From contig JAGGZE010000100.1 of the NCBI GenBank assembly GCA_021162205.1, forward strand, positions 587 to 64,586: a stretch of DNA of 64,000 bases. Direction: 5' to 3'. Position 1 is the stretch's first letter; each line of letters begins with the position of its first letter. Position numbers and translations under genes: made by a program. The stretch is from a bacterium. GTDB lineage: Bacteria > UBP14 > UBA6098 > B30-G16. The notes under the pieces are model-generated. The model made no database searches. It saw only the letters and a list, made by a program, of their open reading frames with translations, and was not told the DNA's origin. Of this stretch, positions 22,209 to 54,821 are shown piece by piece.

Positions 22209-25200
22209 ATGCGAAATTTATCGATAATCATAATATTTTTGATTTCTACAGGAATTCTGACGGCACAGGATACTATTCCGCCAAATGTCTATTTCTACTA
22301 TCCGGGCGACTATGCTTTTTTCTCTTGCGATTCGGGCGTAATCATTTTCAAAATTTTGGATGAAAGCCCAATCGACTGGATGACGAGCCATCTCGATATG
22401 TTTGTTAATGCAAGTCCACCTGTGGTTCTTGCGGAAAGTCTGGCATCGCCACTCGATTCATTTTACTATTTTTATCTTCCACATTCGTTTTCGGATGGCG
22501 ATTCGGTGCGGCTTTCTTATCTGCCGATATACGATATCTGGGGCAACTGGCGAAATGCTAATTTTTATTTCTATGTCGATTTGAGTCCACCCGAAATTTC
22601 ACTTATAACTCCTTCCGAAGGCACACTGCCGAATATGAATCTTTTTTTCAGAGCGCAAATAGCCGATGAAATGGCGAGAATAAATCTCGACTCGTCGAAT
22701 GTTTCAATCGATGTTTTCGGCAACAATAATTGGAGTAGCACTTTTCAATTTTCATCTGGTTATGTGATATATTTTGGCGATACGCTTTTAGTCGATGTCA
22801 ATTCGCTCGGTGACATAAGCGGTGGCGATACGATTCGAATATGTGTCGATGCCGGAGATAATGCAGTCGGCTGCGGAGCAAATAGAACCGATACCTGTTT
22901 CACATACGATTTACCATACACTCCGCCCGATATCGAACTTGTATATCCTTTCGATGGAGCGGTTTTGGCTCCACACTGTGCGGATTCTATAATTTTTATT
23001 GTGAACGATGTCGATTCTATCGCATATATTTGGATTACAGTAGGAGTGGATACATATACAATTACCGACCCCGAAATTTCAATTTCGGGAGATACGGTAT
23101 TATTCAATACTTCATCGGCATTCGACGACGATGAATACTATAATATCATAATCCACTGCACCGATATTTACGATATAAGCTCACAATATTCGTTCGGAAT
23201 TTGGTTCGACACATCGTCGCCGTTTATTGTAAGCATAACGCCTGCATCGGGTTCGCTAATCACCGATACGATAATTACAGTAGGTTTTCAGATGGTCGAT
23301 TACATTGCTGGAATCGACCCTGGTTCGATTGCACTCACTATCGATGGCGCTCCCTCGGTATTCGATTTCGATTCGACTACTGGATTTATGTCGTTCGACC
23401 TTATATTCGATGACGTTATCGATACTTTAGATGTTATTCTGAATATTTGCATAAATGGCTCTGATAATCCCGATTATTGCACAAATAATTTCGATTCCTG
23501 TTTTGCACTTCATTATTACATCGATATACGCAGTCCCGAATTTTTTCCGCCAAATGGTTCGGTAACCGCCTGCATAGACCAATCACTTGCAGCGGCACTT
23601 TATTCACTCGGTGGTATAGATTCCGAAACTGTGATTCTGACTTTAATTAATATGACCGATGGTGGAACGATAGCCGATATTCAACTGTCCGACCCGCGTT
23701 TCAGCCATACGAGAACACCTGTGCCGCCATTCGGAGTGATGGATAGTTTCTTTTTCGAGCCCACACCGGGTTTTTGGCCCGATGGCAAATATATCCAATG
23801 CAGTATTTACGGATATGTTCATCATTCCAGCCATCCTGGATATTATACATATCCATGGTTTTTCTATACCGATTTTTCGCCGCCATATCTCGAATCGATT
23901 TCGCCTGCGAATGGTTCTGTCGAATTTACACCGCCCGATACGATGTATTTCCGATTCGGTGATGAAACCGCAGGAGTTCTCGAAACAGCGATAGCTTGTT
24001 CGCTGCTATTCAATGGAGTTCCATTCAGCATACCATTCGGTGCACTCGGACGAATTTCAGGGGATACTGTAGCGCTATCACTTGCAAACTATGGTATAAA
24101 TCTTTCGGGATGCGATTCGATTCGATTTTGCGCATCCGCAATCGATGCTGTCTCGCCTGGTTTTTGTGGACCGAATTCTATGCACGATTGTATAGGTTTC
24201 TCATTGGATTGCACATATCCATCGGCGGAATTTATTTCACCAGAACCTAATATCGTTTTATCCTGTTCGTTGCAAACTATTGTGTTTGCTCTCGATGAAG
24301 ATGTAAATCTCGATTCGTCGAGTATCGTGATTGTGATAAATAATGACACGATTCCATTTTCCGATGACCGCTCGACGATTTCTCCAACTGGCACATTGAC
24401 ATTCTCACCGAATACTTTCTGGAACGATGGCGATACGATTAGCGGATATTTACTCGGTTTATGCGATTATGTCGGTAATTGCAGTGAAACTGTGCCGTTT
24501 CAATTCGTCTTCGATAACTCGCCACCGAACATCGAAACGATTTCACCTTTGCCGGGAGCGATTGTTATCGATTCGCTTGCACCTATCGTTTTGCAAATTT
24601 ACGATGATTTCACATCGCTTTCAAGTTATGGAATTTTAGGCGATTTTGGTGGTTCGTTCACCACTGTTGCTGGAAGCACTTATGTTTTCGACCCGAGTGG
24701 GATTACTGTGCTCGGTCCCGAGGATACAGTTTTCGTCGAGGTTTGGGCGGCGGACAGTGCCGAAAGCTGCGGTTTCAATGCCGATACATTCGAATATTGG
24801 TTCGTTGTCGATGCGGTCGGTCCGAGAATCGTTGCAATCGATTCTGTTATAGGAGAATTCACATCCTGCGACAATCGATGTATTTCATTTCTATTCGATG
24901 ATTTTCTCGGATTGGATACTTTCGCTGCCGAGGTGTATTCATCTAACGAGTCTGAAACATTGAATTTCGCATCGCCATCGTTGGAAATAACCGACAGTAG
25001 TATTGCATATTGTCCATCGGAACCGTATGCCGATGGTGAAACAGTTACTGTTGCACTAATTTCCGCACCGGATATCGCAGGAAATCCATTATTTGCGGAT
25101 AGTATAATAGAAAGATTTATAGTCGATTTATCACCGCCATATTTTGAAAGTATTTCACCGATGTCGGGCGATACACTTACCACAACTGTACCGAATGTGA

Positions 25201-27673: not shown

Positions 27674-30379
27674 ATGAAAAAATACTTGATTTACATCGTT
27701 GTTTCGACAGGACTTATATTGGCGGGCGAATTTCAATGGAATGCAAAAAATACAGCCATCGCAGATTGCGGATTTTCGATTCCACTCGATGCAGGCAGCA
27801 TATTTTACAATCCCGCTTTCGCTGGAGCATTCGGTAGTGGAGTTCTTTCTGCCGGTTATGGAATTCCATTCGCGGGTATCGAAAGTTCCGCAAAATCGGG
27901 TTATCTTGCATACACTCGACCATTGGGATGGAGTGCAGGACTCGCAGTCATCGGGAACTATGAGGATATATCGGCGTATAAAATGTTTAGAATCGGCGGC
28001 GATTTTGCATATCGAATCGCGTTGGCGGGAACATTATCGCTCGGTATGGGAATCGATTGGCTTCAGCGAAGTTATGATATTCCAGCCGATGACCCACTTC
28101 ACGGCAGAGGAAATCCCTCGGCGGTTTCTTTCGATGCTGGAGTGTTATGGCAAATGTTGGACAAATTTGCGTTCGGTCTATCCGCGATGGATATAAACGA
28201 GCCGAATCTCGCAATCGAGGAAAATGCACCCGCATCGAAATTGCCTAAAAGAATCGGCGCAGGAATTTCATATAAATTCACCAACTATTTCATTCCCGAA
28301 CTTGCGATAGTATATCGTTCTTTCACAATCGGCGAAAAATCCAATCCCGAATATATACTCGGTTTCTATGGTGGATTGAAATCCAATACATTGTTCTGGC
28401 GTGGCGGAATTTCTCCCGATATCGCCGATATCGGAGTTGGATGGCATTTGAATTCTGTATTCGGCGGACTCGATTTCGACTATGCTTTCGGATTGCCACT
28501 ACAAAGTTCTCTGCGTTCAGCAGGACAGACACAGCATTATTTCGGTGTAACATTTTACGGCAAACAGGTTCGTGTTCGTAAGGGCGACCTCGAAATTCGG
28601 GATTTGCAAATATCGGGGGAATTTAAGGCGAAAAAGCCGCTTAAAATTTCCGCGACAGTCATAAACGATAGTCGGATAAAAATCACATCGGTTCCGTGTG
28701 CACTCACTGTCTATGATGGCAAAAAATGGAAAATGATTTATCCTACAAAATATATCGATTCACTCGCTTCAAAACAGTCTGTCGAAATGGAGTGGAACTG
28801 GAAACCTAAAATCGAGGGTAAATATACGATTAGAATTACTGCAGATGACGATGGCAATGAAATTCCCGATATTTCGGGGCATATCGATGAAAAAAATGAA
28901 AAGAACAATCAGGTCTCCAAAAAGATAGTGATTTCTGCATCGGATACACTTGTAATCGAGCCTAAAATTTCGACATTATCGGCGACTCAATTGATAGTCA
29001 AGGTAGAGGAGGAACCCGTTGTTCCTGTTGTATTTTTCCCTGCTGGTTCGGCAATGTTCGACAAACGGGGCAGTCAATTTCTCGATGTCCTCGCCGATAG
29101 ACTTTCACAAAATCCCGATGCTATATTGACAGTTTATGGATATTACGATGTTTCAGATGGTGACAAAGACCCGCGTTCCCTTGCTGATGCCCGCGCCGAG
29201 ACTGTGAAAAATAATTTACTCGCTTATAATACAAAACTTGCAAATAGAATTTATACCGTTGATAATTATGATGTGCAAAAATCCCGTCTTACAAGCAGAT
29301 ATGTTAAAAACGACCCGAGAATTAATCAGGAAAACCGAAGAGTCGAATTTTCGGTTTCGGTGAGAAGTGATATTGCTAAATTTTCTGAAAATGATGCAAT
29401 TCGACTTTTACAAAATAACGACGATTTCCTTTTAGTGATAATCGGGAGGCGAACTAAATCGGAAAATGCCCGTGTAGGGTTTGCTCGAGCCGATTCTGTC
29501 AGAAAAAAAATATTGTCGAAAAATCCACATTTGCATAATAGAATTGTGGTAGAGGAAGAAATCGGCGAGGATAGGAATATTATTTTTGAAATCGACCCCG
29601 ATGGCGTAATAGTTCGTCCACGAGAGCGATATCCTGTTTCGGAACAATGGAAAGACCCAGAACCTGCTCGAAATGTAATCGAAATTCGACGCAAAGGGTT
29701 TGAAAATATTCATCGATGGAAAATTGTTGTGGAAAGTGAAGATAGAAATCTCGTTCATACAATAGCAAATGGCTCCGGGATACCGCCCGATTCTATTGTG
29801 TGGGATTGGTCTGTCGGTAAAGATAGATTTTTAGCTCCGAATAACGAGTATGGATTACATATAAAGCTCGAGACCGCCGAAGGAAATCGAGAATATTTTG
29901 CAAATGAGAAAATCCATTTAGTTCCAAGGCAGAAAATCGAGGCGATTGAAAATATGCTATTAGTCGAGTTTGTATTCGATGAAAGCGAACCGCTGTCGAA
30001 ATATCTCGAACGCAGACTTTTCAGTTTTGCAGAAAAATTCGTTGCGAGAGTCGATTCGGGTTATTCACAAAGTGCCGAAATACAGGGACATACCGACAAT
30101 ATCGGTTCCGAACGCAGAAATACCGAACTATCATCTCAACGAGCAAACCGCGAATATTTTATTATGCGGAAATTTATCGCATATTTTGCCGATGTCCCTG
30201 TCGATAAACTCGATAAATGGCTTACCGAACACGATTGTTCACTTTCATATAAAGGATATGCATCTGAAAAACCGTATACACTTCGAGGAAAAATCCTTGG
30301 CGATAATAGTTCTTCGTATGGACGAAATATAAACCGCCGGGTTACTCTCGAATATCATTACGAAAAAGATTTGAAATAA
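27674..30379 (+). CDS. Outer-membrane protein: N-terminal PorP/SprF-like beta-barrel (~290 aa) fused to two OmpA-like peptidoglycan-binding domains.
   Basis: Signal peptide; the N-terminal motif 'SIFYNPAFAGAF' resembles the conserved PorP/SprF 'NPAYAG' start. The C-terminal half has two OmpA-C-like domains ('QGHTDNIGSERRNTELSSQRANR...NRRVTLEY' and 'NRRVEFSV'). It lies immediately downstream of the type B CTD cargo gene. Confidence 0.55.
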   Translation: MKKYLIYIVVSTGLILAGEFQWNAKNTAIADCGFSIPLDAGSIFYNPAFAGAFGSGVLSAGYGIPFAGIESSAKSGYLAYTRPLGWSAGLAVIGNYEDISAYKMFRIGGDFAYRIALAGTLSLGMGIDWLQRSYDIPADDPLHGRGNPSAVSFDAGVLWQMLDKFAFGLSAMDINEPNLAIEENAPASKLPKRIGAGISYKFTNYFIPELAIVYRSFTIGEKSNPEYILGFYGGLKSNTLFWRGGISPDIADIGVGWHLNSVFGGLDFDYAFGLPLQSSLRSAGQTQHYFGVTFYGKQVRVRKGDLEIRDLQISGEFKAKKPLKISATVINDSRIKITSVPCALTVYDGKKWKMIYPTKYIDSLASKQSVEMEWNWKPKIEGKYTIRITADDDGNEIPDISGHIDEKNEKNNQVSKKIVISASDTLVIEPKISTLSATQLIVKVEEEPVVPVVFFPAGSAMFDKRGSQFLDVLADRLSQNPDAILTVYGYYDVSDGDKDPRSLADARAETVKNNLLAYNTKLANRIYTVDNYDVQKSRLTSRYVKNDPRINQENRRVEFSVSVRSDIAKFSENDAIRLLQNNDDFLLVIIGRRTKSENARVGFARADSVRKKILSKNPHLHNRIVVEEEIGEDRNIIFEIDPDGVIVRPRERYPVSEQWKDPEPARNVIEIRRKGFENIHRWKIVVESEDRNLVHTIANGSGIPPDSIVWDWSVGKDRFLAPNNEYGLHIKLETAEGNREYFANEKIHLVPRQKIEAIENMLLVEFVFDESEPLSKYLERRLFSFAEKFVARVDSGYSQSAEIQGHTDNIGSERRNTELSSQRANREYFIMRKFIAYFADVPVDKLDKWLTEHDCSLSYKGYASEKPYTLRGKILGDNSSSYGRNINRRVTLEYHYEKDLK

Positions 30380-32075: not shown

Positions 32076-32160
32076 GCGGAGGGTAAGGGATTCGAACCCC
32101 CATGGGCTTGCGCCCGGCGGATTTCAAGTCCGCTGCCTTACCAATTAGACTAACCCTCCG
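32076..32160 (-). tRNA. tRNA-Ser (anticodon UGA), no encoded CCA.
   Basis: Manual fold: 7-bp acceptor stem, 3-bp D stem, anticodon loop CUUGAAA, 15-nt variable arm (gggc-gcaa-gccc), and T-loop TTCGAAT. Confidence 0.85.
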
Positions 32161-32503
32161 ATATTTTTTCAGGCAATAATTTATGCGAATGTATAACTTT
32201 GTCAAATTCTTTTTAAGCAAAATTTGCTCTCTAATATTCAGGATATTATTTTCAAAATTCTCGAATTGCTCAAATTTATCTTGACTGAATGAGATACCGG
32301 AATATTGTAGTTATATCGGTTTCTGCATAGAAGGAGTATATAATCTTAAAAACACATAGTAAAAATAATAGATTTATTGTAACAATTTTCTTGACCACAT
32401 ATTATTTTAATTTATTATTTTGAATTATTTTAAATAACTATAAAATAGAAATAGAGAATAAAAATAGGATATATTAAAATGATTTTAAATAGAAAGGGAA
32501 ATT

Positions 32504-35500
32504 ATGAATAAAATAGGAAGAATACTGATTGTAGGTGGTGGAATAGGAGGAATTCAGTCCGCATTGGACCTTTCTTCATCGGGTTATAAAGTTTATCTGC
32601 TCGATAAAAAATTATCTATCGGTGGAGCTATGTCTCAATTGGACAAGACATTCCCTACGAACGATTGTTCTATGTGTATACTTTCTCCCAAAATGGTCGA
32701 TGCCGGCAGACAGTTGAATATAGAGCTTCTTACCAATTCCGAGGTATTATCTGTCGAGGGCGAGCCCGGGAATTTCAAGGTAAAAGTATTGAAGAAAGCT
32801 CGGTATGTATCGTTCGATAATTGTAAGGGTTGTGGAGACTGCACTGAAGCCTGCCCTGTTTCGCTTCCCAATCCTTATGAGGAAATGCTCGGGACGAGAA
32901 AGGCGATATGGCGACCATTGGAACAGGCAGTCCCATCGGCATTCGCTGTCGATAAATTGGGTATCCCTCCTTGCAGGGCGAGATGTCCTATTCACTTAAA
33001 TGCCTATGGGTATGTGATGGCAGCAAAAGTGAAAGAATGGGAAAGAGCACAGGAAATCGTAAGAAAGGATAGAGATTTTGTATTCGCTGCCACTGCTGCA
33101 AGGATATGCACTCATCCCTGCGAATCGGAATGCAAAAGATGCGAGGTAGATGAACCTGTATCTATAAGAGGTATTAAAAGATGGATTGTCGATTGGGAAT
33201 TTGAAAAATATGGCGGTCCAAATCTACCGATAGAGATAGCGGAAGAGAAAGATAAGCGTATTGGAATTATAGGTGCGGGACCTGCTGGACTCACAGCCGC
33301 TTTTCATCTTCGCAAAAAAGGTTATCGAGTCGAAGTATTCGAAAGTCTGCCAGCTGGTGGTGGTATGCTTCTTGCGGGTATTCCAGCATACAGACTTCCC
33401 AAAGATATTTTGAAAAAAGAAGTGGAAATAGTAGAAAAATCGGGTGTCGATATAAAGTATAATACCAGCATAGGAAAGGATATACAGTTCGACGAGTTAC
33501 TCGGGAATTTCGATTCGGTGTTTATCGCTACAGGAGCGCATAAATCGAGAGGTATGAAAATACAAGGTGAAGGACTAACAGGTGTTCATCATGCAGTGCA
33601 TATATTGAGAAAAATAAATTTAGGCGAGGAAGTAAAATTAGGGAAAAAAGTAGTTGTAGTAGGCGGAGGAAACTCTGCGATGGATGCAGCGAGAAGTGCA
33701 TTAAGGTTGGGTTCCGATGTAACGATATTGTATAGAAGGTCGAGACTCGAGATGCCGGCGATAGACGAGGAGATAGAGGCAGCGATTTCAGAAGGCATAA
33801 ATATCGAATTTTTAAGGAATCCTGTCGAATTTATAGGGGAGAATGGTAAATTAAGCAAAGTGAAAGTTATCGAGATGGAATTGGGTGAACCCGATGAATC
33901 TGGTAGAAGAAGACCTGTGCCTATATCGGGGAGTGAATATGAACTACCTGCCGATGATGTTATGCTCGCCATTGGTGAAAAACCCGAGCTTTCGTTCCTA
34001 AATAGTTCAAATATCGATATAACAGATTGGGGAACTATAAAAGCGGATGAGCTTACACTTCAGACATCGAATCCCAAAGTATTTGCAGGAGGCGACACTG
34101 TTACGGGACCCGCTTCATTCATAGATGCGGTTGCTCATGGTATGAGAGTAGCGGAATCCATCGATAGATATATATCAGGGAGAGATATTAGAGAAGGCAG
34201 AGAGGATGAACTGCCATTTAAGAGTGATTTAGTGGGCGATAAAGAAAGAGCATACCAAAAAGAGAGAATGCATCAGCCCATAGTTCCTGTCGCAGAAAGA
34301 ATAAAGGATTTCAGGGAGGTAGAATTAACTCCTAATGAAGATGATGTATCCGAGGAAGGGAAAAGGTGTATCGAATGTGCGCACTGTTCAGAATGTATGC
34401 TTTGTATGGAAGCTTGCGAGCCAGATGCAATTTTACATGATATGATATCGGAGGAAGTCGAACTGAATGTGGGCTCGATTATTCTTTCACCCGGTTACGA
34501 AGAATTCGCTGCCGAGAAAATTACTGAATTCGGTTATGGAAGATTCCCTAATGTTGTAACCTCGATACAGTTCGAGAGAATCCTATCTGCATCTGGACCT
34601 TATGGTGGAAATATAGTAAGGCCATCGGATAATGAACATCCCAAAAAGATTGCGTGGATTCAATGTGTCGGTTCGAGAGATAAACACAATGAATATTGTT
34701 CCTCTGTATGCTGTATGTATGCGGTTAAGGAAGCGGTAATTTCCCGAGAACATGCAAGCGATACCGATGCCACAATATTCTTTATGGATATAAGAGCTTA
34801 TGGAAAAGATTTCGATAAATATATCGATAGAGCAAGGGATGAATACGGTGTTAAGTTCGTAAGGTCGAGAATAGCAAAAATAGATGAAAATCCCGATACC
34901 AAAAATCTTATTATAAGATACGAGGCAAATGGCGAATTAAAGAAAGAAGAATTTGGACTTGTTGTGCTTTCTGTCGGACTTGCACAGCTTCCAGATAAGG
35001 ATGATATTAAGGAAAAATTTGGTATCGAACTAAACGAGTTCGGTTTCGCAAAAACAGATACATTCTGCCCTATATGCACCACCAGAGATGGCATATTTGT
35101 ATCTGGTGCATTTCAATCTCCAAAAGATATTCCAGAAACGGTAGCACAGGCATCGGGTGCAGCGGCAATGGCAGGAGGAGTATTATCCGATGTCAGATGG
35201 ACAGCAACCGAGAAAAAAGAGTATGTGGATGAAAAAATTGTTAAAAATGAAAGACCCAGAATCGGAGCATTTATATGTCGCTGTGGAATAAATATAGGTG
35301 CTTATGTAGATGTGCCAGCAGTTGTGGAATATGCAAAAACACTTCCCGGTGTTGTATATGCGGAAGAAAATCTATATACTTGTTCTCAGGATACACAGGA
35401 AAAAATAAAGGATATGATAAAAAAACATAATCTAAATAGAGTAGTTGTCGCATCCTGCACTCCGAGAACTCACGAACCGCTTTTCCAAGGGACTATAAGA

Positions 35501-36961
35501 GAAGCGGGCTTAAATAAGTATCTTTTCGAAATGGCTAATATAAGAGACCAGGATTCATGGGTGCATATGCACGAGAAGGACAAAGCGACAGAGAAGGCAA
35601 AAGAATTGGTGAAAATGGCGGTCTATAAGTCTGGGCTTCTCGAACCTCTCGAAACATCTATAATTCCTGTTACCAAAAGGGCGCTTATTATCGGTGGAGG
35701 GATAACAGGTATGAATGCTGCACTCGGGGTAGCGAATGAGGGATTCGAGGCGGTAATAATAGAAAAAGAGAGTGAATTAGGCGGTGTCGCTAAAAATATC
35801 CATTATACACTCGATAAAAGGGATGTGAATACTTATTTGAAAGAGTTGATAGAGAAGGTCGAGAATAATCCCAAGATAAAGGTCTATAAAAGTGCTGAAA
35901 TAGAAAATGTCGAGGGATATGTGGGGAATTTCAAAACAGTGATAGATAAAGATGGCGAATCTATCGAAATCGAGCATGGTGTTGCGATTATAACGGTTGG
36001 GGCGAATGAATATATCCCTACGGAATATCACTATGGCGAAGATGAAAAGATATTAACCCAGTTAGAATTCGAGAAAAATTTATTAGATGGATTATCTAAA
36101 TCTCCCAAAACTATCGCTATGATACAATGTGTCGGCTCGAGAAATGATGAACATCCTTGGTGCAGCAGAGTTTGCTGCGGCGAAGCTGTAAAAAACGCAA
36201 TATTGACGAAAGAAAAATATCCCGATGCAAATGTATTTGTTTTTTACAGGGACATAAGAACCTATGGATTTAAGGAAATCTATTATAAAAAAGCAAGAGA
36301 AATGGGTGTTATTTTTATAAGATTCGAGGAAGGTAAGGAACCCGATGTTCAGATAAAGAATGGGAATATCTCGGTAGAGGTTATAGACATAATCCTAAAT
36401 AGAAAATTGAGGGTCGAACCCGATTATTTAGTGCTTTCTAATGGAATTGTTCCCGATATCGAAAGCAATAAAAAGCTGTCGGAATTTTTCAAAGTGCCTA
36501 TCAATCAGGATGGTTTTTTCCTCGAAGCTCACGCCAAATTGAGACCTGTCGATTTTGCAACCGATGGCGTATTCCTTGCAGGGCTTGCTCATTCCCCCAA
36601 AGGTATAGACGAATCTATCGGTCAAGCTTATGCAGCTGTTTCGAGAGCGACAACAGTCCTTTCAAAAGATGGAATAGAAACATCGGGAATAACATCCAGC
36701 GTGAATGAAATGAAATGTGTAGGATGTGGATTATGCGAGGAAAGTTGTGCTTATGGTGCAATTTCTCTCGTAGATAAAAAAGTATTCGGCAAAATAAAAC
36801 ATATAGCGGAAGTAAATAAAGTATTATGCAAAGGTTGCGGTGCCTGTGCTGCCGCTTGCAGGTCGAATGCAATAGACCTGTTGGGATTTACCAATAATGA
36901 AATCGTCTCGGAAATTTTAGCTATGAGTGAGGAAAGGAGATATAATGGACAAAGAGTATGA
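32504..36961 (+). CDS. hdrL: HdrL-type giant heterodisulfide-reductase-A-like flavoprotein: HdrA N-terminus, an NfnB/GltD-like NAD(P)H:FAD insert, the HdrA remainder, a second HdrA-like unit and C-terminal 2x[4Fe-4S].
   Basis: 1,485 aa. Contains 'ILIVGGGIGGIQSALDL...DKTFPTNDCSMCILSPK' (HdrA start); a GltD-like segment 'RIGIIGAGPAGLTAAFHL...GGGNSAMDAARSALRLG'; two 'CVGSR(D/N)...C(S/C)RVCC' motifs; and terminal CxxCxxCxxxC pairs. Confidence 0.7.
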   Translation: MNKIGRILIVGGGIGGIQSALDLSSSGYKVYLLDKKLSIGGAMSQLDKTFPTNDCSMCILSPKMVDAGRQLNIELLTNSEVLSVEGEPGNFKVKVLKKARYVSFDNCKGCGDCTEACPVSLPNPYEEMLGTRKAIWRPLEQAVPSAFAVDKLGIPPCRARCPIHLNAYGYVMAAKVKEWERAQEIVRKDRDFVFAATAARICTHPCESECKRCEVDEPVSIRGIKRWIVDWEFEKYGGPNLPIEIAEEKDKRIGIIGAGPAGLTAAFHLRKKGYRVEVFESLPAGGGMLLAGIPAYRLPKDILKKEVEIVEKSGVDIKYNTSIGKDIQFDELLGNFDSVFIATGAHKSRGMKIQGEGLTGVHHAVHILRKINLGEEVKLGKKVVVVGGGNSAMDAARSALRLGSDVTILYRRSRLEMPAIDEEIEAAISEGINIEFLRNPVEFIGENGKLSKVKVIEMELGEPDESGRRRPVPISGSEYELPADDVMLAIGEKPELSFLNSSNIDITDWGTIKADELTLQTSNPKVFAGGDTVTGPASFIDAVAHGMRVAESIDRYISGRDIREGREDELPFKSDLVGDKERAYQKERMHQPIVPVAERIKDFREVELTPNEDDVSEEGKRCIECAHCSECMLCMEACEPDAILHDMISEEVELNVGSIILSPGYEEFAAEKITEFGYGRFPNVVTSIQFERILSASGPYGGNIVRPSDNEHPKKIAWIQCVGSRDKHNEYCSSVCCMYAVKEAVISREHASDTDATIFFMDIRAYGKDFDKYIDRARDEYGVKFVRSRIAKIDENPDTKNLIIRYEANGELKKEEFGLVVLSVGLAQLPDKDDIKEKFGIELNEFGFAKTDTFCPICTTRDGIFVSGAFQSPKDIPETVAQASGAAAMAGGVLSDVRWTATEKKEYVDEKIVKNERPRIGAFICRCGINIGAYVDVPAVVEYAKTLPGVVYAEENLYTCSQDTQEKIKDMIKKHNLNRVVVASCTPRTHEPLFQGTIREAGLNKYLFEMANIRDQDSWVHMHEKDKATEKAKELVKMAVYKSGLLEPLETSIIPVTKRALIIGGGITGMNAALGVANEGFEAVIIEKESELGGVAKNIHYTLDKRDVNTYLKELIEKVENNPKIKVYKSAEIENVEGYVGNFKTVIDKDGESIEIEHGVAIITVGANEYIPTEYHYGEDEKILTQLEFEKNLLDGLSKSPKTIAMIQCVGSRNDEHPWCSRVCCGEAVKNAILTKEKYPDANVFVFYRDIRTYGFKEIYYKKAREMGVIFIRFEEGKEPDVQIKNGNISVEVIDIILNRKLRVEPDYLVLSNGIVPDIESNKKLSEFFKVPINQDGFFLEAHAKLRPVDFATDGVFLAGLAHSPKGIDESIGQAYAAVSRATTVLSKDGIETSGITSSVNEMKCVGCGLCEESCAYGAISLVDKKVFGKIKHIAEVNKVLCKGCGACAAACRSNAIDLLGFTNNEIVSEILAMSEERRYNGQRV

Positions 36962-37373
36962 ACCTAATATAATCGCTTTTCTGTGCAATTGGTGCAGTTA
37001 TGCGGGAGCCGACCTTGCAGGCGTTTCGAGATTCCAGTATCCAGCAAATCCCAAGGTGGTAAGGGTCCCCTGTTCGGGCAGGATAAACCCTATGTTTATT
37101 GTGAAATCGCTTTACGAAGGATTAGATGGTGTTTGGGTATCGGGATGTCATCCGGGAGATTGCCATTATAATACAGGGAATTATTATGCAAGGAGAAGAT
37201 TTGCCCTGTTAAAGAATATGCTTTCACATATCGGATTCGAAGAGGATAGGACATTGTTCTCCTGGGTATCGGCATCCGAGGGAAATATATTCGCAGACAA
37301 AGCGAAAGAGGTTACAGCGAGAATAAAGAAACTCGGTCCGCGAAAAAAATTACTAAAAAACAGAGATATTTGA
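36945..37373 (+). CDS. mvhD: MvhD/FlxD-like [2Fe-2S] protein (methyl-viologen-reducing hydrogenase delta-subunit family).
   Basis: 'IIAFLCNWCSYAGADLAG...VRVPCSGRINP...GVWVSGCHPGDCHY' matches the MvhD signature. The ATG at 36945 is preceded by an AGGAGA RBS; the ORF track starts at an upstream GTG at 36927. Confidence 0.75.
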   Translation: MDKEYEPNIIAFLCNWCSYAGADLAGVSRFQYPANPKVVRVPCSGRINPMFIVKSLYEGLDGVWVSGCHPGDCHYNTGNYYARRRFALLKNMLSHIGFEEDRTLFSWVSASEGNIFADKAKEVTARIKKLGPRKKLLKNRDI

Positions 37374-37390
37374 ATAAATTGGAGGTTTAA

Positions 37391-38287
37391 ATGGCAGATA
37401 AAATTGTAGAAAATATTAGGAAAGAAGCGAAAAGGATTCTCGAAGAAAAAATAGTGGATATAGTAATCGGTTTTGAGAAAGGCACACTTCCCTATACTGC
37501 ATCTCCTGTATTTATCGAAAATCCCGACGATGTAGATAAACTTATTTGGAACAGATATTGTCATAATAATCTCGCTGTTTATCTAAGGAATTTCCCCGAT
37601 AAAAAAATCGGCATTATTGTTAAGGGTTGCGACAGTCGCTCGATTGTTGCATTGATGGCAGAAAAACAGCTTACACGGGAAAATATTTATATAATCGGTG
37701 TTCCCTGTGAAGGAATGCTCGATAAGAATAAATTACTCGAGGAGTTCGGTGATAATCCACCGATAGAAGTTAAGGAAGAATTTCTCTATCCATCCTGTCA
37801 GTATTGCGAACATAAAAATCCTGTGATATATGATTTTTTGACAGGTGAACCTGTTCAGGAAAAAGAAGAAGAGCCATACCCGGATGTAGTCGAATTTGAA
37901 AAGAAAACATTAGATGAGAGATGGAAATATTTTCAAGAAGAAGCATCGAAATGTATTAGGTGTTATGCTTGCCGTCAAGCTTGCCCTATGTGTTATTGCG
38001 AGGAATGTTTTGTCGATACAAATTCTCCGAAATGGCTCGACCCGGGAATTGACCTTCCAGATTTACAGGTATGGCATATTATTAGAGCATACCATCAAGC
38101 AGGCAGATGTGTCGATTGTGGCGCTTGCGAAAGAGCTTGCCCTATGGATATAAAAATTTTATGGTTGACCAGAAAATTGAATAAAGATGTAAGAGATTTG
38201 TTCGAGTTTGAAATAGGAATCGACCCCGAAAAAGTTCCTCCACTCGGAACATTCTCATTATACGATAAAGAGGAGTTTTTAATATGA
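37391..38287 (+). CDS. Iron-sulfur protein with 2x[4Fe-4S] motifs (FlxC/FrhB-like electron-transfer subunit).
   Basis: 'CIRCYACRQACPM' and 'CVDCGACERACPM' ferredoxin motifs. A GGAGG RBS precedes the start and the stop overlaps the next start (ATGA). Confidence 0.55.
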   Translation: MADKIVENIRKEAKRILEEKIVDIVIGFEKGTLPYTASPVFIENPDDVDKLIWNRYCHNNLAVYLRNFPDKKIGIIVKGCDSRSIVALMAEKQLTRENIYIIGVPCEGMLDKNKLLEEFGDNPPIEVKEEFLYPSCQYCEHKNPVIYDFLTGEPVQEKEEEPYPDVVEFEKKTLDERWKYFQEEASKCIRCYACRQACPMCYCEECFVDTNSPKWLDPGIDLPDLQVWHIIRAYHQAGRCVDCGACERACPMDIKILWLTRKLNKDVRDLFEFEIGIDPEKVPPLGTFSLYDKEEFLI

Positions 38288-39252
38288 AAAAAATAGATAA
38301 AAAAAGACTATTTGAAAGACTGAATAATCTTATTAAAGATTATGTCGTATATGCTCCCAAAGGGAAAGATTTTGGGAAAATCGAGGATACATCGGAGATT
38401 AAAAGGGAAAGTATAAATGTTAGACTTTCGCCTAAACAGGTATTTCTTCCTCAGGAAGAAGCTTTGTTCACTTTCAAACAAGGCGATATAAAGGTTCCCG
38501 AGAATAACGAGAAATATATTCTTTTCGGTATAAGACCCTGCGATGCAAAAGCGATAGCACTTTTAGATAAAAATTTCGATACGAAAGATTTCCCCGACCC
38601 GTATTATATCGATAGGAGAAAAAACTCTATCCTTATAGCTGAAGCCTGTATCGAACCCGAATCCACTTGCTTTTGCACAGCTTTTGGAAGCGGTCCATTC
38701 GAATCGAAAGATGCAGATGCCTTGATTATCGATAGGGGAGACTATTATTTGATAGATGGCAATGAGAAAGCTTTATCGCTTTTCGATGGTCTATTGGAAG
38801 ACGATGGTGGCGAGAAAATTCTCGAATTAAAGAAAAAGGCAGAGGATTCGATAAAATCTCCCGTTGTCGAGGGTATCGATAAAAAACTTTCGAGTATGAT
38901 AGACGACCCAATCTGGGATGAAGTTTCAAGGAAGTGTATAACCTGCGGTGCTTGCACATATCTTTGCCCGACTTGCTATTGTTTCGATATTCAAGATGTA
39001 GGGAAGGATGATAAATATATGCGGGAACGAGTATGGGATTCCTGTATGTTCACAGTATATACGCTCGAAGCATCCGGTCATAATCCCAGAAAGGAAAAGG
39101 AAAAAAGAATGAGGCAGAGGGTTATGCATAAATTCAATTATTATCCCTTCCTTTACGATGAATATGGATGTGTCGGATGTGGAAGGTGCATAAAATACTG
39201 TCCTGTAAATGTAGATATAAGAAAAATAATAACAAAGATAATGGAGGTATAA
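38284..39252 (+). CDS. HydB/AsrA/FlxB-like iron-sulfur subunit (sulfhydrogenase beta / anaerobic sulfite reductase A family).
   Basis: 'FGIRPCDAKAIALLD', 'CITCGACTYLCPTCYC', 'CVGCGRCIKYCP'. Stop at 39252 and the next ATG at 39253 indicate translational coupling. Confidence 0.6.
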   Translation: MKKIDKKRLFERLNNLIKDYVVYAPKGKDFGKIEDTSEIKRESINVRLSPKQVFLPQEEALFTFKQGDIKVPENNEKYILFGIRPCDAKAIALLDKNFDTKDFPDPYYIDRRKNSILIAEACIEPESTCFCTAFGSGPFESKDADALIIDRGDYYLIDGNEKALSLFDGLLEDDGGEKILELKKKAEDSIKSPVVEGIDKKLSSMIDDPIWDEVSRKCITCGACTYLCPTCYCFDIQDVGKDDKYMRERVWDSCMFTVYTLEASGHNPRKEKEKRMRQRVMHKFNYYPFLYDEYGCVGCGRCIKYCPVNVDIRKIITKIMEV

Positions 39253-40071
39253 ATGAATAATCCATATATACCTATGTCAGGGAAAATAAAGAAGGCATGG
39301 TTCGAATCCACCGACCGCAGTCTGAGAACATTGGATATCGTGTTAGATAATGGCAAGATGGATTTTATCCCGGGACAGTTCTGTGAAATATCCATTATGG
39401 GCAAAGGAGAATCGCCATTCGGTATAGCTTCTGCGCCATCGGAAGATTTTCTAAGATTCACTGTAAATAAAACTGGTTATGTAACGGCAGCCATACATTG
39501 GCTCGAAGAGGAAACCCCCGTATGGATTAGAGGTCCATTGGGTAATGGTTATCCTGTCGAAAAATTCGAAGGGAAAAATATTGTGATTGTAAGTGGAGGT
39601 TTTGCATTTACGACGCTTCGGTCTTTGCTGATATATCTATTAGACCACCGGGATAAATATAAAGACATAACGGTTGTATATGGTGCCAGAGAACCCGGGC
39701 TTTTACTTTATAGAGAAGAATTGCAAGAATGGGCGAAAAGAGACGATGTAAATATACACCTCGCTGTCGATGCAGAATTCGAGGGCTGGCAGGGTCATGT
39801 TGGATTTGTTCCTACCATACTTGAAAAGGTTAGTCCATCATCCGAGGATGCATATCTTGTGATGTGCGGTCCACCCGCTATGATAAAATTTACTTTACCT
39901 GTGATAAAAAAATTGAACTTCCCATCTGAAAAGGTTTATACATCTCTCGAAAGAAGAATGAAATGCGGAATTGGAAAATGTGGCAGATGTAATATCGGTC
40001 CATATTATGTATGCAAAGACGGTCCTGTATTCTCTTTGGATGTGCTTGAAAAACTGCCGAAAGAGTATTAA
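39253..40071 (+). CDS. HydG/AsrB/FlxA-like FAD/NAD(P)-binding oxidoreductase with C-terminal [2Fe-2S] (PyrK/FNR-like fold).
   Basis: 'RFTVNKTGYVT' (FAD-binding RxYS-like), the NAD-binding stretch 'GKNIVIVSGGFAFTTLRSL', and a C-terminal 'CGIGKCGRC...C' cluster. Confidence 0.65.
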   Translation: MNNPYIPMSGKIKKAWFESTDRSLRTLDIVLDNGKMDFIPGQFCEISIMGKGESPFGIASAPSEDFLRFTVNKTGYVTAAIHWLEEETPVWIRGPLGNGYPVEKFEGKNIVIVSGGFAFTTLRSLLIYLLDHRDKYKDITVVYGAREPGLLLYREELQEWAKRDDVNIHLAVDAEFEGWQGHVGFVPTILEKVSPSSEDAYLVMCGPPAMIKFTLPVIKKLNFPSEKVYTSLERRMKCGIGKCGRCNIGPYYVCKDGPVFSLDVLEKLPKEY

Positions 40072-41315: not shown

Positions 41316-41390
41316 TGGCCCAGAGTGGAATTGAACCACTGACCTCGCGCTTATCAGGCGCGCGCTCTAACCATGCTGAGCTACTGGGCC
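41316..41390 (-). tRNA. tRNA-Ile (anticodon GAU).
   Basis: Manual fold: acceptor GGCCCAG/CTGGGCC, anticodon loop CUGAUAA, T-loop TTCAATT. Confidence 0.85.
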
Positions 41391-41461
41391 CCTCGAATAA
41401 ATTATCTTATTTAAGAACACATTGCCATTTCTCACACCGACTAATCCCGACTGAGCTAATC

Positions 41462-41534
41462 TGGAGGATACCGGACTCGAACCGGTGGCCCCAAGCTTGC
41501 AAAGCTTATGCTCTCCCAACTGAGCTAATCCCCC
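41462..41534 (-). tRNA. tRNA-Ala (anticodon UGC) with a G3:U70 pair.
   Basis: Manual fold: acceptor GGGGGAT/ATCCTCC with the G3-U70 wobble (Ala identity element), anticodon loop UUUGCAA, T-loop TTCGAGT. Confidence 0.85.
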
Positions 41535-41598
41535 ATTTAAGTTATAACGCTAAACAAGATTTTTGATTTGTCAAGAAAATTCTTACGGATGATTTCGG

Positions 41599-43158
41599 TT
41601 ATTTGTTATTCTGTGCAAATTCGGTCAATCGGCAGAAATCGTCGACATCTAATTGTTCGGCGCGGGTATTTTCATCTATACAGAGCGAAGCAAAGATTTT
41701 GTGCCAATCTATATCGTCGCGAAAATTGCGAAGATTCGATAAAAGTTTTTTTCTTCTATGCGCAAATGAAACTCTAACCAATCGAGAGAATATTTTGCCA
41801 TCGATATTCGGAAAAATAGGTTGTTTGCGGGTTGTAAGCCGAACCGCTGTCGATATTATTTTCGGTGCAGGATTAAAACTTTTAGGACTTATATCGAAAA
41901 GTTTTTCGATATCGAAATATCTGCTTAGTATCACCGATGGTATCCCGTAGGTTTTGTTGCCCGAACTTGCGCAAATCCGCTGTGCAACTTCCTTCTGCAT
42001 AATCAACAATGCACGATTTATCGCTCGATAATTTTGTGCAAACCAAAACAATATCGGTGTTGTTATCGAATATGGGATATTTCCGATAAGTGTGAGTGGT
42101 TCATCGTAATAATCTCGAATTCTGTCCAGTTCGAGAGCGAGTATATCCTGCTGGACGACAAATCCTTTATCGGATGAAATTTTTTCGCTTAGTGCCTTTG
42201 CAAAGAAATCATCGAGTTCTACCGCTATGGTTTTGTCGAAATGCTCGACCAATTTTTCTGTGATAATGCCTTTGCCGGGACCGATTTCGATTGCGATTTT
42301 GCCATCGCCGAAAAAGTTTGAAAGTTTTTGAACAATTCCTACATTGATTAAAAAATTCTGCCCCAGTGTTTTTTTTGTATGGTGAAGATATGGCGATGGA
42401 AATCGAAACAATTTCGCCGCATTTTTTGTGGTCTGAAAAGAAAGTCGCTCGAGTGGAATATTTTTAATTTCAGCGATTTTCTGTGCGATTAATGGAATAT
42501 TTGCCGGCTCGTTGCGTTTCCCGCGATATGGATGCGGTGCGAGATATGGACAATCGGTTTCGAGTAATATTCTATTGGGAGGCGTTTGCTCGATTAGATT
42601 TTGTCGTTTGAAATTTTTAAATGTAATCGGTCCACCGAACCCGATGTAAAAATTCTTTTCCAATGCCCAGTCTAAAAAAATTTCATCGCCAGAAAATGCG
42701 TGAAGCACTCCGCGAAAATACCCGCATTTTTCCAAAATCTCCCGCGCTTTTTCTTGAGCATCTCGAATGTGAATTATCATTGGAAGACCGAGTTGTTTCG
42801 CCAGTTCGATTTGCGCTTCAAAGAATTTAAATTGATTATTCGGCGATGAATGTTCACGATAAAAATCCAATCCGATTTCGCCGATTGCCACAACTTTGGG
42901 GTGCCTCGCGAGTTTGATAATCTCATCTAACCAATTATCATTGCAATTGTCGATTTCATTGGGATGAACACCGACCGCAGACCATATTTCTGGATAATGC
43001 TCGGCAATTTCGATTCCGCGTTTGGAACTCGCCAAATCGACACCGACATCTATAATTCTGCTGACATCGGAGTCGAATGCTCGATGAATAACTTTCTCCC
43101 TATCATCATCGAACTGCTTGAAATCGAGATGTGAATGTGTATCGCAAAATTTTTGCAT
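41599..43158 (-). CDS. Fusion protein: TatD-family metal-dependent hydrolase (N-terminal) plus 16S rRNA (adenine1518/1519-N6)-dimethyltransferase RsmA/KsgA (C-terminal).
   Basis: Single uninterrupted ORF. The TatD motifs 'DTHSHLD', 'AIGEIGLDFY', 'PMIIHIRDA', 'LETDCPYLAP' are followed directly by the RsmA motifs 'LGQNFLIN', 'AIEIGPGKGIITEKL', 'IGNIPYSITTPI'. The start is chosen at MQKF (43158); the ORF is open to 43260. Confidence 0.7.
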   Translation of the reverse strand: MQKFCDTHSHLDFKQFDDDREKVIHRAFDSDVSRIIDVGVDLASSKRGIEIAEHYPEIWSAVGVHPNEIDNCNDNWLDEIIKLARHPKVVAIGEIGLDFYREHSSPNNQFKFFEAQIELAKQLGLPMIIHIRDAQEKAREILEKCGYFRGVLHAFSGDEIFLDWALEKNFYIGFGGPITFKNFKRQNLIEQTPPNRILLETDCPYLAPHPYRGKRNEPANIPLIAQKIAEIKNIPLERLSFQTTKNAAKLFRFPSPYLHHTKKTLGQNFLINVGIVQKLSNFFGDGKIAIEIGPGKGIITEKLVEHFDKTIAVELDDFFAKALSEKISSDKGFVVQQDILALELDRIRDYYDEPLTLIGNIPYSITTPILFWFAQNYRAINRALLIMQKEVAQRICASSGNKTYGIPSVILSRYFDIEKLFDISPKSFNPAPKIISTAVRLTTRKQPIFPNIDGKIFSRLVRVSFAHRRKKLLSNLRNFRDDIDWHKIFASLCIDENTRAEQLDVDDFCRLTEFAQNNK

Positions 43159-43303
43159 ATTACTAAATTTTTTACAGGGAGAGAGGCATTGCCTCTTCTT
43201 ATTCCACAAATTTATTTTATAATCAATTTTCAAGTTATACTTGACTTTTTTTAATAGCAAATTATTTTATCAACTTAAATTTGAAAACAGGAGGAATTTT
43301 TTA

Positions 43304-54269: not shown

Positions 54270-54821
54270 CTACTTTTCAGACTTTTCAAGCGATACGCCA
54301 ATGTTTGCAAGCCCATCTGCAATTTTGTTGTATTTCCTTAAAATATGAACAAATTTCACGGTTCGGAATATTTTAGGATGTGTGACATCTCCAAGATGTG
54401 TGATATCTCCAAGATGTGTGACATCTCCAAGATGTGCGACATCTCCAAATTGTAAAAGTTTATGTGCTTTTGCGGCAAGTTGAGCAAGAGTAGGATTTTT
54501 GAGCCGATATTCGCCTCGCATCTGTTTAACGAGCAATTCACTATCCGAACGGATTTCAATATTATGTTCTGTGGGATGTGTGAGAACTGGAAGATGTGTG
54601 ACATCTGCAAGATGTATAAGTTTATTCACCTGTTCGAGGGCGAGTATTAAAGCTTTGTATTCGGCGACATTGTTCGTTGCAATCCCTATCGATTTCGACA
54701 TTCTAATCAATTCATCACCAGATTCTGTCGTGATGAAAACACCGATACCAGCAGGACCTGGATTTCCTTTCGATGCACCATCTATATAACATATTAAATT
54801 CATATATATTTTTATTTTCAA
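54270..54821 (-). CDS. rnhA: Ribonuclease HI carrying two in-frame insertions of 6-aa (GDVTHL) tandem repeats.
   Basis: 'CYIDGASKGNPGPAGIGVFI', '...ATNNVAEYKALILAL', 'IEIRSDSELLVKQMRGEY', 'YNKIADGLAN' cover the RNase H catalytic residues. The true start is probably MNLICY at 54803. Confidence 0.7.
   Translation of the reverse strand: MKIKIYMNLICYIDGASKGNPGPAGIGVFITTESGDELIRMSKSIGIATNNVAEYKALILALEQVNKLIHLADVTHLPVLTHPTEHNIEIRSDSELLVKQMRGEYRLKNPTLAQLAAKAHKLLQFGDVAHLGDVTHLGDITHLGDVTHPKIFRTVKFVHILRKYNKIADGLANIGVSLEKSEK
54377..54448. repeat. 4 x 18-bp perfect or near-perfect tandem repeat (gatgtgtgacatctccaa), each unit containing the palindrome agatgt-gtg-acatct. It is in-frame inside rnhA and encodes (GDVTHL)4.
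   Basis: Direct reading of 54377-54448. A second degenerate array of the same unit lies at 54575-54616 (encoding ADVTHL/PVLTHP). Confidence 0.9.

Follow-up and report, generated by a model that had tools for sequence, protein, structure and literature searches.

The FlxABCD-HdrABC system of Desulfovibrio vulgaris, treated by Ramos et al. 2015, reportedly combines HdrABC with a FAD/NAD(P)/[2Fe-2S] protein (FlxA), two Fe-S proteins (FlxB and FlxC) and an MvhD-like protein (FlxD). For this system it is proposed that electrons from NADH are bifurcated between a disulfide and an acceptor of low potential (PMC4759654, PMC6687939). Large HdrA-like proteins have been named HdrL in Desulfobacterium autotrophicum (HdrL1-3; PMC2702500), and HdrL clusters are abundant under sulfate reduction, as is the case for the HdrABC/HdrL cluster Sfum_0819-0824 of Syntrophobacter fumaroxidans (PMC5947623) and for Dred_1325-1330 of Desulfotomaculum reducens (PMC4759654). 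The hdrL-flx operon described here, at positions 32504-40071 of a 64-kb stretch of contig JAGGZE010000100.1 (hereafter the window, meaning the whole stretch of DNA analysed), comprises five genes on the plus strand. The architecture of its largest product is already known, from HdrL of sulfate reducers and from the GltD-inserted or double HdrA proteins of archaea (PMC2702500, PMC4759654, PMC5947623, PMC9012536, PMC12054007). However, in the accessible literature, which does not include Ramos et al. 2015 and Pereira et al. 2011, neither the full hdrL-flxDCBA(-hdrA-hdrC-hdrB) arrangement nor the HdrBC-less five-gene form was found, and neither a permuted insertion nor an occurrence of HdrL in an FCB-group bacterium. 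With a probability of roughly 0.6, the products of the five genes would form the soluble core of an oxidoreductase of the Flx-Hdr type, linked to NAD(P)H and equipped with several flavins and Fe-S clusters, with bifurcation or confurcation as its proposed activity and with an acceptor that is encoded elsewhere in the genome.

In the window locus, as in FlxABCD-HdrABC, a HdrA-type flavoprotein would receive its electrons from an MvhD-like protein, Fe-S proteins and a FAD/[2Fe-2S] protein that oxidises NAD(P)H. The gene order is different, with the flx genes following hdrL in the order D-C-B-A in the window, whereas in D. vulgaris they precede hdrA in the order A-B-C-D. In addition, the window has a 1,485-aa HdrL and no HdrB or HdrC, and the ferredoxin exit appears to be taken by a second NAD(P)H module. 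The HdrL clusters of sulfate reducers share with the window a large HdrA-like protein with NAD(P)H-binding glutamate-synthase-like domains, an mvhD gene that always follows and, in S. fumaroxidans, also a gene for an FdhB-like Fe-S protein. Unlike the window, the S. fumaroxidans and D. reducens clusters contain hdrABC, and HdrL1 adjoins dsrABC; conversely, S. fumaroxidans and D. reducens locus VI lack FlxA and FlxB, both of which the window possesses. The window locus is furthermore devoid of selenocysteine, and its host is not a known sulfate reducer.

HdrL (gene 1, 32504..36961, +, 1,485 aa) contains two HdrA-like units and an inserted GltD/NfnB module, an architecture that was proposed in the first-pass annotation, made by a model from the DNA letters, and that is borne out by matches to both HdrA and GltD models. 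HdrA2 is matched with 988 bits (Pfam/NCBIfam), and residues 153-657 match the NAD(P)-binding model NF009410 with 517 bits, against a cut-off of 516 (NCBIfam). By phmmer alignment the protein was mapped piecewise onto HdrA from Methanothermococcus (5ODC_A). Residues 6-151 align with HdrA 145-290 and take in the opening part of the FAD domain, the DCSxC motif and, of the inserted ferredoxin domain, the first half. Residues 622-842, which align with HdrA 287-511, supply the second half of that ferredoxin domain and the remainder of the FAD domain. Residues 916-1088 return to the beginning of HdrA (positions 2-174, 215 bits), covering its N-terminal cluster domain and running into a second FAD domain, and residues 1334-1473 correspond to HdrA 513-648.

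The first unit thus delimited starts with residues 1-151 (32504..32956, +), which include the beginning of a FAD-binding Rossmann fold (GGGIGG), a DCSMC motif in which C58 is the equivalent of HdrA Cys197, and C107/110/113/117. It is interrupted by the GltD/NfnB-type module (residues 152-621, 32957..34366, +) and continues with residues 622-915 (34367..35248, +), which complete its thioredoxin-reductase-like domain and contain C628/631/634/638, E691, K742 and the four-cysteine cluster C721/732/736/737. The second unit consists of a HdrA N-terminal domain (residues 916-1057, 35249..35674, +) with the cluster C925/927/960/985, a thioredoxin-reductase-like FAD domain (residues 1058-1395, 35675..36688, +) with GGGITG, E1190, K1230 and C1209/1220/1224/1225, and a C-terminal 2x[4Fe-4S] ferredoxin domain (residues 1396-1485, 36689..36958, +) with C1405/08/11/15 and C1442/45/48/52.

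The two units are complementary. Unit 1 has neither the N-terminal HdrA domain nor the C-terminal ferredoxin domain, while unit 2 lacks the inserted ferredoxin domain and the Cys197 equivalent, with no cysteine at all between residues 986 and 1208. [quoted passage not shown] The sequence shows HdrL to be two HdrA units fused into a single chain, the ferredoxin domain of the first being split by an NAD(P)H flavoprotein of the Nfn type, and the protein would represent an intramolecular version of the HdrA dimer, i.e., a pseudo-heterodimer. By analogy, C58 of unit 1 would complete the unit 2 cluster C925/927/960/985. The complementarity of Cys197 and the N-terminal domain in fused HdrA proteins of ANME archaea was read by Chadwick et al. 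as an intramolecular heterodimer (PMC9012536). The type II (double) and type III (GltD-inserted; class A9-TRX-C) HdrA proteins of ANME-1 and Bathyarchaeia resemble HdrL in the site of the insert, the complementary fusion and the K409/E356 pair (PMC9012536, PMC12054007). They differ in that HdrL joins both modifications in one chain, with the Cys197 unit first and the N-terminal-domain unit second, an order that is reversed in ANME HdrA3/4, and in that the archaeal clusters lack a HydB/HydG-type module. The cofactors predicted for HdrL are three FAD and about nine [4Fe-4S] clusters.

The ligands of these cofactors are strictly conserved. In an alignment of 36 full-length HdrL homologues with 55-66% identity, all 40 of the 40 cluster-forming cysteines that were checked are invariant, and so are the glycine motifs for FAD and nicotinamide binding. 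The first-pass annotation had asked whether the bifurcating-FAD residues of HdrA are conserved, and they are. The Lys/Glu pair K409/E356 at the flavin is used as a criterion for bifurcating HdrA (PMC12054007). Its equivalents in unit 1, K742 and E691, are invariant together with the GGGIGG motif (36/36), and unit 2, with GGGITG, contains the equivalent residues K1230 and E1190, present in 32/36 and 35/36 sequences, respectively. HdrL of the window departs at only 15 positions from the residues that are invariant in the HdrBC-linked group, and these substitutions are scattered and mostly conservative. Neither decay nor a remodelling of the HdrC interface is apparent in HdrL; a relaxed constraint on its HdrC-facing parts was considered and rejected in view of the small number and the nature of the substitutions.

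The insert is a close homologue of NfnB/NfnL, as is evident from the matches of residues 152-621 to 9N5U_A (3e-119), 5JCA_L (5e-93) and 4YLF_B (3e-88), and in the 5ODC_A alignment it sits between HdrA positions 290 and 287. Its motifs GAGPAG (257), GGGNSA (387) and YRR (410-412) and the cysteines C157/161/202/206/210 and C622/625 are all invariant; of the two [4Fe-4S] clusters predicted for the module, the seventh and eighth ligands may be a glutamate or C213. HdrL residues 594-625 (KERMHQPIVPVAERIKDFREVEL...EEGKRCIEC) align with the extreme N-terminus of the Pyrococcus Nfn large subunits, with weak E-values of 0.03-0.06 and a clear motif match, and the module is therefore inserted in permuted order. 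A PPCxxxCP pair (C157, C161) is located at the start of the insert and the first CxxC pair (C622/C625) at its end, three residues ahead of the HdrA motif C628xxC631xxC634xxxC638. The two ends of the insert probably form one [4Fe-4S] cluster together, right next to the ferredoxin clusters of HdrA. GGGNSA, the module's second nucleotide motif, has the GXGXXA form and is followed by the invariant YRR. By the rule applied in PMC12054007 this is NADP-type and suggests that the nicotinamide site binds NADP(H); GXGXXG is reported for archaeal type III HdrA, in which the GltD domain has been proposed, on the basis of structure predictions, to block the ferredoxin site (PMC12054007). In comparison with NfnAB (4YLF, 5JCA) and Stn/NfnABC (8OH5, 9N5U), the window encodes both an NfnB/NfnL homologue (1e-88 to 1e-119) and an FNR/PyrK-type [2Fe-2S] flavoprotein. 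However, the former is permuted inside HdrA, the latter belongs to the sulfhydrogenase-gamma type, has a beta subunit as its partner and does not obviously dock on the GltD flavin, and no free-ferredoxin site is evident.

When a genome collection was scanned with HdrL as the only query, most of the matches were double HdrA proteins without the insertion or plain GltD homologues, and there was no five-gene locus among them. The insertion-less double HdrA proteins occur with MvhD-HdrC-HdrB in metagenome-assembled genomes (MAGs) of Bathyarchaeia, Cytophagales, Desulfobacterales and Methanomassiliicoccales (L002, 11995-16783, and L003-L006). Because they are 48-61% identical to HdrL on both sides of the insert, the GltD module must have entered a pre-existing double HdrA. 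The double HdrA scaffold crosses the domains of life and is older than the GltD insertion.

The four smaller genes encode accessory subunits, the cysteines of which are conserved in 10-13 relatives. The product of gene 2 (mvhD/flxD-like, 36945..37373, +, 142 aa) is the MvhD-like [2Fe-2S] protein that had been recognised at first sight, with a Pfam FlpD score of 174.5 bits, a match to 5ODC_D of 1.8e-45, and five cysteines that are kept in 13/13 sequences. Genes 3 and 4 had both been taken for HydB/FlxB/FlxC-like proteins. For gene 4 this assignment stands, but gene 3 (flxC-like, 37391..38287, +, 298 aa) turns out to be a truncated FdhB/FrhB-like protein. Its closest counterpart is FdhB from the Fdh-MvhD-Hdr supercomplex (7BKB_E, E = 1.8e-35), of which residues 32-158 and 281-388 are matched, while residues 159-280, the central third between the N-terminal FrhB-like and the C-terminal ferredoxin-like parts, are missing. 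The Pfam matches to FrhB_FdhB_N and FrhB_FdhB_C are weak, the latter covering positions 2-49 of 150. The protein contains 16 cysteines, including two CxxCxxCxxxCP motifs, which are conserved in 10-11 of 11 sequences, and it is predicted to be an Fe-S adaptor in trimmed form, comparable to the subunit in contact with MvhD in Fdh-MvhD-Hdr supercomplexes.

Gene 4 (flxB-like Fe-S subunit, 38284..39252, +, 322 aa) encodes a homologue of sulfhydrogenase beta and AsrA, matching Fer4_22 (117 bits), the AsrA model TIGR02910 (1e-52, under the model cut-off) and 9NEZ_B (4.9e-42); its 15 cysteines could ligate about three [4Fe-4S] clusters. Gene 5 (flxA-like FAD/NAD(P) [2Fe-2S] subunit, 39253..40071, +, 272 aa) is related to sulfhydrogenase gamma, AsrB and PyrK. 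It consists of NAD_binding_1 and DHODB_Fe-S_bind domains, with C238/243/246/254 as cluster ligands, in agreement with its original description as a HydG/AsrB-like reductase, and its match to 9NEZ_C (6.3e-49) is much stronger than those to the NfnA chains 4YLF_A (1.2e-13) and 5JCA_S (1.5e-6). Genes 4 and 5, which directly abut, are homologous to AsrAB and to the beta-gamma pair of Pyrococcus furiosus sulfhydrogenase I (9NEZ, with beta as 9NEZ_B and gamma as 9NEZ_C), and together would constitute an NAD(P)H:Fe-S module. The whole complex is estimated to contain four flavins and roughly 16-18 Fe-S clusters.

The list of open reading frames (ORFs) of the window confirms the five genes as co-directional and translationally coupled, at the positions where they were first placed. 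The junctions measure -17 nt (an overlap) between genes 1 and 2, +17 nt between genes 2 and 3, -4 nt (ATGA) between genes 3 and 4, and 0 nt between genes 4 and 5, and ribosome-binding sites of the GGAG type precede genes 2 (AGGAAAGGAG) and 3 (GGAGG). Only the start of mvhD has to be revised, from GTG 36927 to, most likely, ATG 36945, because of the AGGAAAGGAG ribosome-binding site and the JGI gene call. Overall, the first-pass annotation was essentially right in its identification of genes and domains, and its interpretation is partly supported.

HdrL homologues are numerous, those of full length amounting to thousands. Among 8,000 scored candidates, 7,916 have E <= 1e-50, and all 120 of the 120 homologues listed have a length of ~1,470-1,530 aa. 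Many relatives are full-length with 55-66% identity and belong to Desulfobacterota, Aerophobetes and Syntrophaceae-type MAGs, besides the window bacterium itself; in a database of 5.8 billion proteins, no HdrL with more than 66% identity was found outside the 90% cluster of the window protein. The genomic context was surveyed in 80 metagenome loci, 65 of which have enough downstream sequence and 15 of which have good flanks. MvhD directly follows HdrL in 63/65 loci, and a CCG gene is located at a distance of <=10 kb from HdrL in 10 of the 15 well-flanked loci. The complete five-gene block is also present in L019, L021, L023, L040, L070, L104, L105, L107 and L108. It is followed by hdrA-hdrC-hdrB in four of these (L019, L021, L104 and L108), and L105 ends inside that hdrA. 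A CCG gene, belonging to hdrCB or to another CCG protein, adjoins the block in L023, L040 and L070, and the contig of L107 ends just past it.

The nearest relatives of the window HdrL, P0003 (65% identity), P0007 (60%), P0009 (59%) and P0017 (58%), are encoded in an eight-gene cluster with the order hdrL, mvhD, FdhB-like Fe-S protein, HydB-like protein, HydG-like protein, second double HdrA (925-994 aa), hdrC and hdrB. For P0002 (66%) the five-gene block runs into the start of the second hdrA, up to the end of the contig. In a neighbour-joining tree, calculated without support values, the window HdrL groups with P0002 and P0003. Since the nearest relatives carry hdrA-hdrC-hdrB and the window protein groups with two of them, the simplest reading is that these genes were lost, or never acquired, in the window lineage. 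The HdrL-Flx family appears to be normally HdrBC-linked, and the window would represent a lineage-specific reduction and not evidence for an HdrBC-independent class of enzymes. Linkage of hdrBC to genes of this type, which according to the first-pass annotation would change the interpretation, was found for orthologues in other organisms (the four loci with hdrA-hdrC-hdrB named above), not for paralogues in the window genome.

Several other genes were noticed near HdrL in the surveyed loci. GcvH-like lipoyl-carrier genes lie beside HdrL in eight distinct loci (L019, L021, L023, L038, L046, L089, L107 and L108; regions noted at L019 21776-24347 and L108 21759-22806), and CMD/AhpD-like, TusA and DsrE/DsrH genes sometimes follow the HdrL clusters; the window contains none of them. 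By analogy, the GcvH, TusA and DsrE neighbours recall the sulfur-oxidising sHdr-LbpA systems and hint at the substrate of the HdrBC module. In L023 (17787-20639) the five-gene block is directly followed by a gene for a 950-aa protein with a GlcD-type FAD-linked oxidase, Fer4 and two CCG domains, a fusion which suggests that the HdrL-Flx core can also be joined to other dehydrogenase-CCG modules. Exactly at the hdrL|mvhD junction, L103 contains an HNH_5 endonuclease gene (14478-15476) and L107 a gene for a 23S_rRNA_IVP four-helix-bundle protein (13354-13722), both of them small and apparently selfish.

Pfam scans of essentially all large ORFs of the 64-kb window revealed no CCG/HdrB, NiFe hydrogenase, FdhA or AsrC gene, and a hidden Markov model (HMM) of HdrB, built from 59 relatives, gave zero matches in the window. 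This agrees with the initial claim that HdrBC, hydrogenase and formate dehydrogenase are absent from it. In HdrABC complexes, HdrB carries two CCG domains whose non-cubane clusters form the site of disulfide reduction. Iterated HMMs of HdrC and ferredoxin drifted into generic Fer4 matches and were left out. Contiguity of hdrABC with the five-gene block, as in the relatives, is not found in the window, where a convergent endonuclease V gene starts 30 nt past the flxA stop codon. The acceptor is most likely a CCG-type or other protein that is encoded elsewhere in the genome.

The MvhAGD-HdrABC and FdhAB-MvhD-HdrABC(-Fmd) complexes of methanogens (5ODC, 7BKB, 8RVU) contain homologues of HdrA, MvhD and the FdhB-like protein with conserved ligands, and can serve as a template for the donor path. 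In contrast to these complexes, the window encodes no hydrogenase, FdhA or HdrBC, its FdhB is trimmed, and the HdrA homodimer would be replaced by a single-chain pseudo-heterodimer. From the gene content, the order of the domains, the conservation of ligands and the synteny of relatives, a set of subunit contacts, an electron path, a coenzyme preference, bifurcation and an acceptor can be proposed. NAD(P)H would be oxidised at the HydG/AsrB-like gamma subunit, by FAD and then [2Fe-2S], and the electrons would pass via the HydB-like beta subunit and the trimmed FdhB-like adaptor to the [2Fe-2S] cluster of MvhD. In the solved Hdr complexes the C-terminal ferredoxin domain of HdrA is the docking site for MvhD and lies on the electron path (PMC9012536). 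As in Mvh-Hdr and Fdh-Hdr, the electrons would enter HdrL via this domain, which only unit 2 possesses, and arrive at the FAD of that unit. The low-potential branch may run from the N-terminal-domain cluster of unit 2, completed by C58, across the inserted ferredoxin domain and on to the GltD clusters and the GltD flavin. It would end at a second nicotinamide site, for NADP(H) according to its motif, instead of at free ferredoxin; this coupling is proposed because the first cluster of the GltD module is stitched onto the HdrA ferredoxin motifs. The high-potential exit would be formed by the two FAD-domain clusters, which feed HdrC/HdrB in the relatives and for which the window encodes no partner.

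The operon occupies a variable, tRNA-bounded region. A tRNA-Ser(TGA) gene (32076-32159, -) lies directly upstream, and a pair of tRNA-Ile(GAT) and tRNA-Ala(TGC) genes (41316-41390, -, and 41461-41535, -) is found ~1.2 kb downstream, with no rRNA gene adjoining. The gene order of two sister species (L109 and L110, PNPase 88-89% identical) agrees with that of the window between tatD-ksgA and bamA only. Upstream of this region other genes replace the stretch with tRNA-Ile/Ala, Mut7-C, endonuclease V and the hdrL operon, such that the break is located exactly at the tRNA-Ile/Ala pair. The GC content at third codon positions is 0.31-0.42 in the operon and 0.35-0.46 in its neighbours, the operon's codon usage correlates with that of housekeeping genes at 0.84, and only codon positions 1 and 2 show its high GC skew. 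Recent horizontal transfer was considered and is not demonstrated, as the composition has no clear foreign signature, although synteny breaks at the flanking tRNA genes.

Some points weigh against a Flx-Hdr-type core with an acceptor encoded elsewhere. To our knowledge, no member of the HdrL family and no HdrL-Flx complex has been purified, and bifurcation, coenzymes and electron direction are deduced from comparison. NAD(P)H at both the donor and the low-potential site demands a third, high-potential partner, and in the 64 kb of the window no DsrC, TusA, DsrE or GcvH gene is present either. The likeness of the flx subunits to FlxA-D of D. vulgaris (DVU2399-2402) is one of domain composition and description. 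Moreover, no CCG gene is visible in L041, L054, L061, L089, L095, L101 and L103, and a CCG-independent role is conceivable. The five subunits could accordingly be imagined as a self-contained enzyme, either an Nfn-like NADH/NADPH (+/- ferredoxin) transhydrogenase or an NAD(P)H:ferredoxin oxidoreductase, that has no CCG partner. Gamma would take the role of NfnA and the GltD module that of NfnB, with the two HdrA flavins between them, and ferredoxin or flavodoxin would dock at the HdrC-free clusters of the thioredoxin-reductase domains. Consistent with this are the two separate nicotinamide sites, whose types match NfnA and NfnB, the intact cofactor ligands, and the absence of a CCG gene not only from the 64 kb of the window but also from five of the 15 well-flanked HdrL loci. 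The CCG-less block recurs in L101 (five genes, with no CCG gene in the flanks that can be seen, 1.1 kb upstream and 2.2 kb downstream). L045 and L100, neither of which has a CCG gene downstream, may be further cases, and L103 is another CCG-less variant. However, the nearest adequately flanked relatives have hdrA-hdrC-hdrB or a CCG gene in cis, and the window HdrL has not diverged at residues that are conserved in the HdrBC-linked group. Compared with its match to sulfhydrogenase gamma (6e-49), the gamma subunit matches NfnA far more weakly (1e-13 and 1.5e-6), and four other modules with cofactors lie between it and the GltD flavin. A plain NADH/NADPH transhydrogenase would have no need of some 16 Fe-S clusters and four flavins. 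We consider a self-contained enzyme possible but rather unlikely. A bolder form of it, in which two HdrA flavins with bifurcation-type residues and one Nfn-type flavin act in series via branches that are normally the low-potential ones, in a complete, HdrBC-independent enzyme that would found a new class of energy-coupling NADH/NADPH (+/- ferredoxin) transhydrogenases on an HdrA scaffold, with the tRNA-flanked cassette as a mobile minimal unit, seems unlikely to us.

The operon might also be an orphan with little or no role, left over from the upstream part of an eight-gene hdrL-flx-hdrABC cluster after a rearrangement at a tRNA-rich breakpoint or a partial transfer. The grouping of the window HdrL with P0002 and P0003, whose loci go on into hdrA/hdrC/hdrB, would fit such an origin, as would the tRNA-Ser and tRNA-Ile/Ala genes on either side, the collinearity with the sister species only from tatD-ksgA on, and the lack of an HdrL above 66% identity beyond the protein's own 90% cluster. 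Yet the five ORFs are intact and translationally coupled with good ribosome-binding sites, all cofactor ligands are conserved with only those 15 mostly conservative changes at otherwise invariant positions, codon usage is near that of housekeeping genes with a GC skew confined to codon positions 1 and 2, and the 30-nt gap between flxA and the endonuclease V gene is too short to hold a pseudogene fragment of hdrA or hdrB. A mere remnant is, in our opinion, quite improbable. A conventional AsrAB-type sulfite reductase, an NADPH sulfhydrogenase or an F420- or formate-dependent donor module for Hdr would account for the matches of genes 4 and 5 to AsrA/AsrB and HydB/HydG models and of gene 3 to FdhB. 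The scores, however, are far under the curated NCBIfam cut-offs (AsrA 179.5 vs 323, AsrB 179.2 vs 289, HydB/HydG 155-166 vs 650-750), the window has no siroheme subunit AsrC, no NiFe alpha/delta subunit and no FdhA, and gene 3 misses FdhB 159-280. For the window locus these conventional assignments are effectively refuted, and the Flx-Hdr-type core with an external acceptor is preferred over the other explanations.

The spacer between tRNA-Ser(TGA) and hdrL (32160..32503) is presumed to contain the promoter and leader region. It had been described as a 343-bp AT-rich leader, and it is indeed AT-rich, but it is a divergent spacer towards the tRNA-Ser gene on the opposite strand. The element TTGACT-N16-TATTGT, which had been taken to suggest independent regulation, is present at 32281-32308. 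It tells little about regulation, however, because it is one of 11 sigma-70-like matches in this AT-rich kilobase (3.5 expected), and a better-scoring one, TTGACC-N16-TATTAT, is found at 32391-32418. A promoter assignment in the spacer was dropped, the sigma-70-like matches being numerous and none of them decisive. The Bacteroidetes-type motif TANNTTTG is not enriched (58 matches vs 49 expected), and an Rfam scan of 31.5-41.7 kb yielded tRNAs only, with no riboswitch or leader RNA. An ArsR-type regulator gene is located upstream in two of the nearest-relative loci (L019 and L105), unlike in the window, which contains no ArsR-type HTH gene upstream of hdrL.

The other genes of the window encode housekeeping and surface proteins, including SurA, endonuclease V, Mut7-C, a TatD-KsgA fusion, PNPase, BamA, TruB, MazG and MutS2. 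The best named relative of PNPase is from a Zixibacteria MAG (72% identity), followed by Calditrichota and KSB1 (~56%), and the host, an uncultured sediment bacterium (NCBI protein MCD6595167.1), is apparently an FCB-group member related to Zixibacteria; the type IX secretion protein is in keeping with the FCB group. A single ORF at 115-17877 (+) encodes a giant-adhesin-like protein of 5,920 aa with dozens of Big_1/Invasin_D3 Ig-like repeats, and is followed by genes for a 1,797-aa Big_5 protein (22209-27602) and a PorP/SprF-CARDB-OmpA fusion (27674-30379); their combination suggests a locus for surface proteins of type IX secretion. The 553-aa ORF at 41599-43260 (-) fuses a TatD-type DNase to a KsgA/RrnaAD rRNA dimethylase, and an equivalent 532-aa fusion exists in L109 and L110. 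A 183-aa RVT_3/RNase H-like ORF at 54270-54821 (-) adjoins genes for a CT398-like zinc-ribbon protein and NIF3.

HdrL-type proteins are very common in anoxic sediments and abundant in the proteomes of sulfate reducers. Among the loci examined, no natural HdrL-Flx assembly is smaller than the five-gene form, which has neither the second HdrA nor HdrBC and would be a convenient minimal construct for questions on the role of the GltD insert, the activity of both HdrA flavins and turnover without a CCG module. For the family as a whole, the usual linkage to hdrA-hdrC-hdrB and the frequent GcvH, TusA and DsrE neighbours point to a protein-bound disulfide or a sulfur carrier as the high-potential substrate, and in the eight-gene relatives the NADH-driven reduction of such a protein disulfide or sulfur carrier, coupled to the reduction of NADP+, is plausible.

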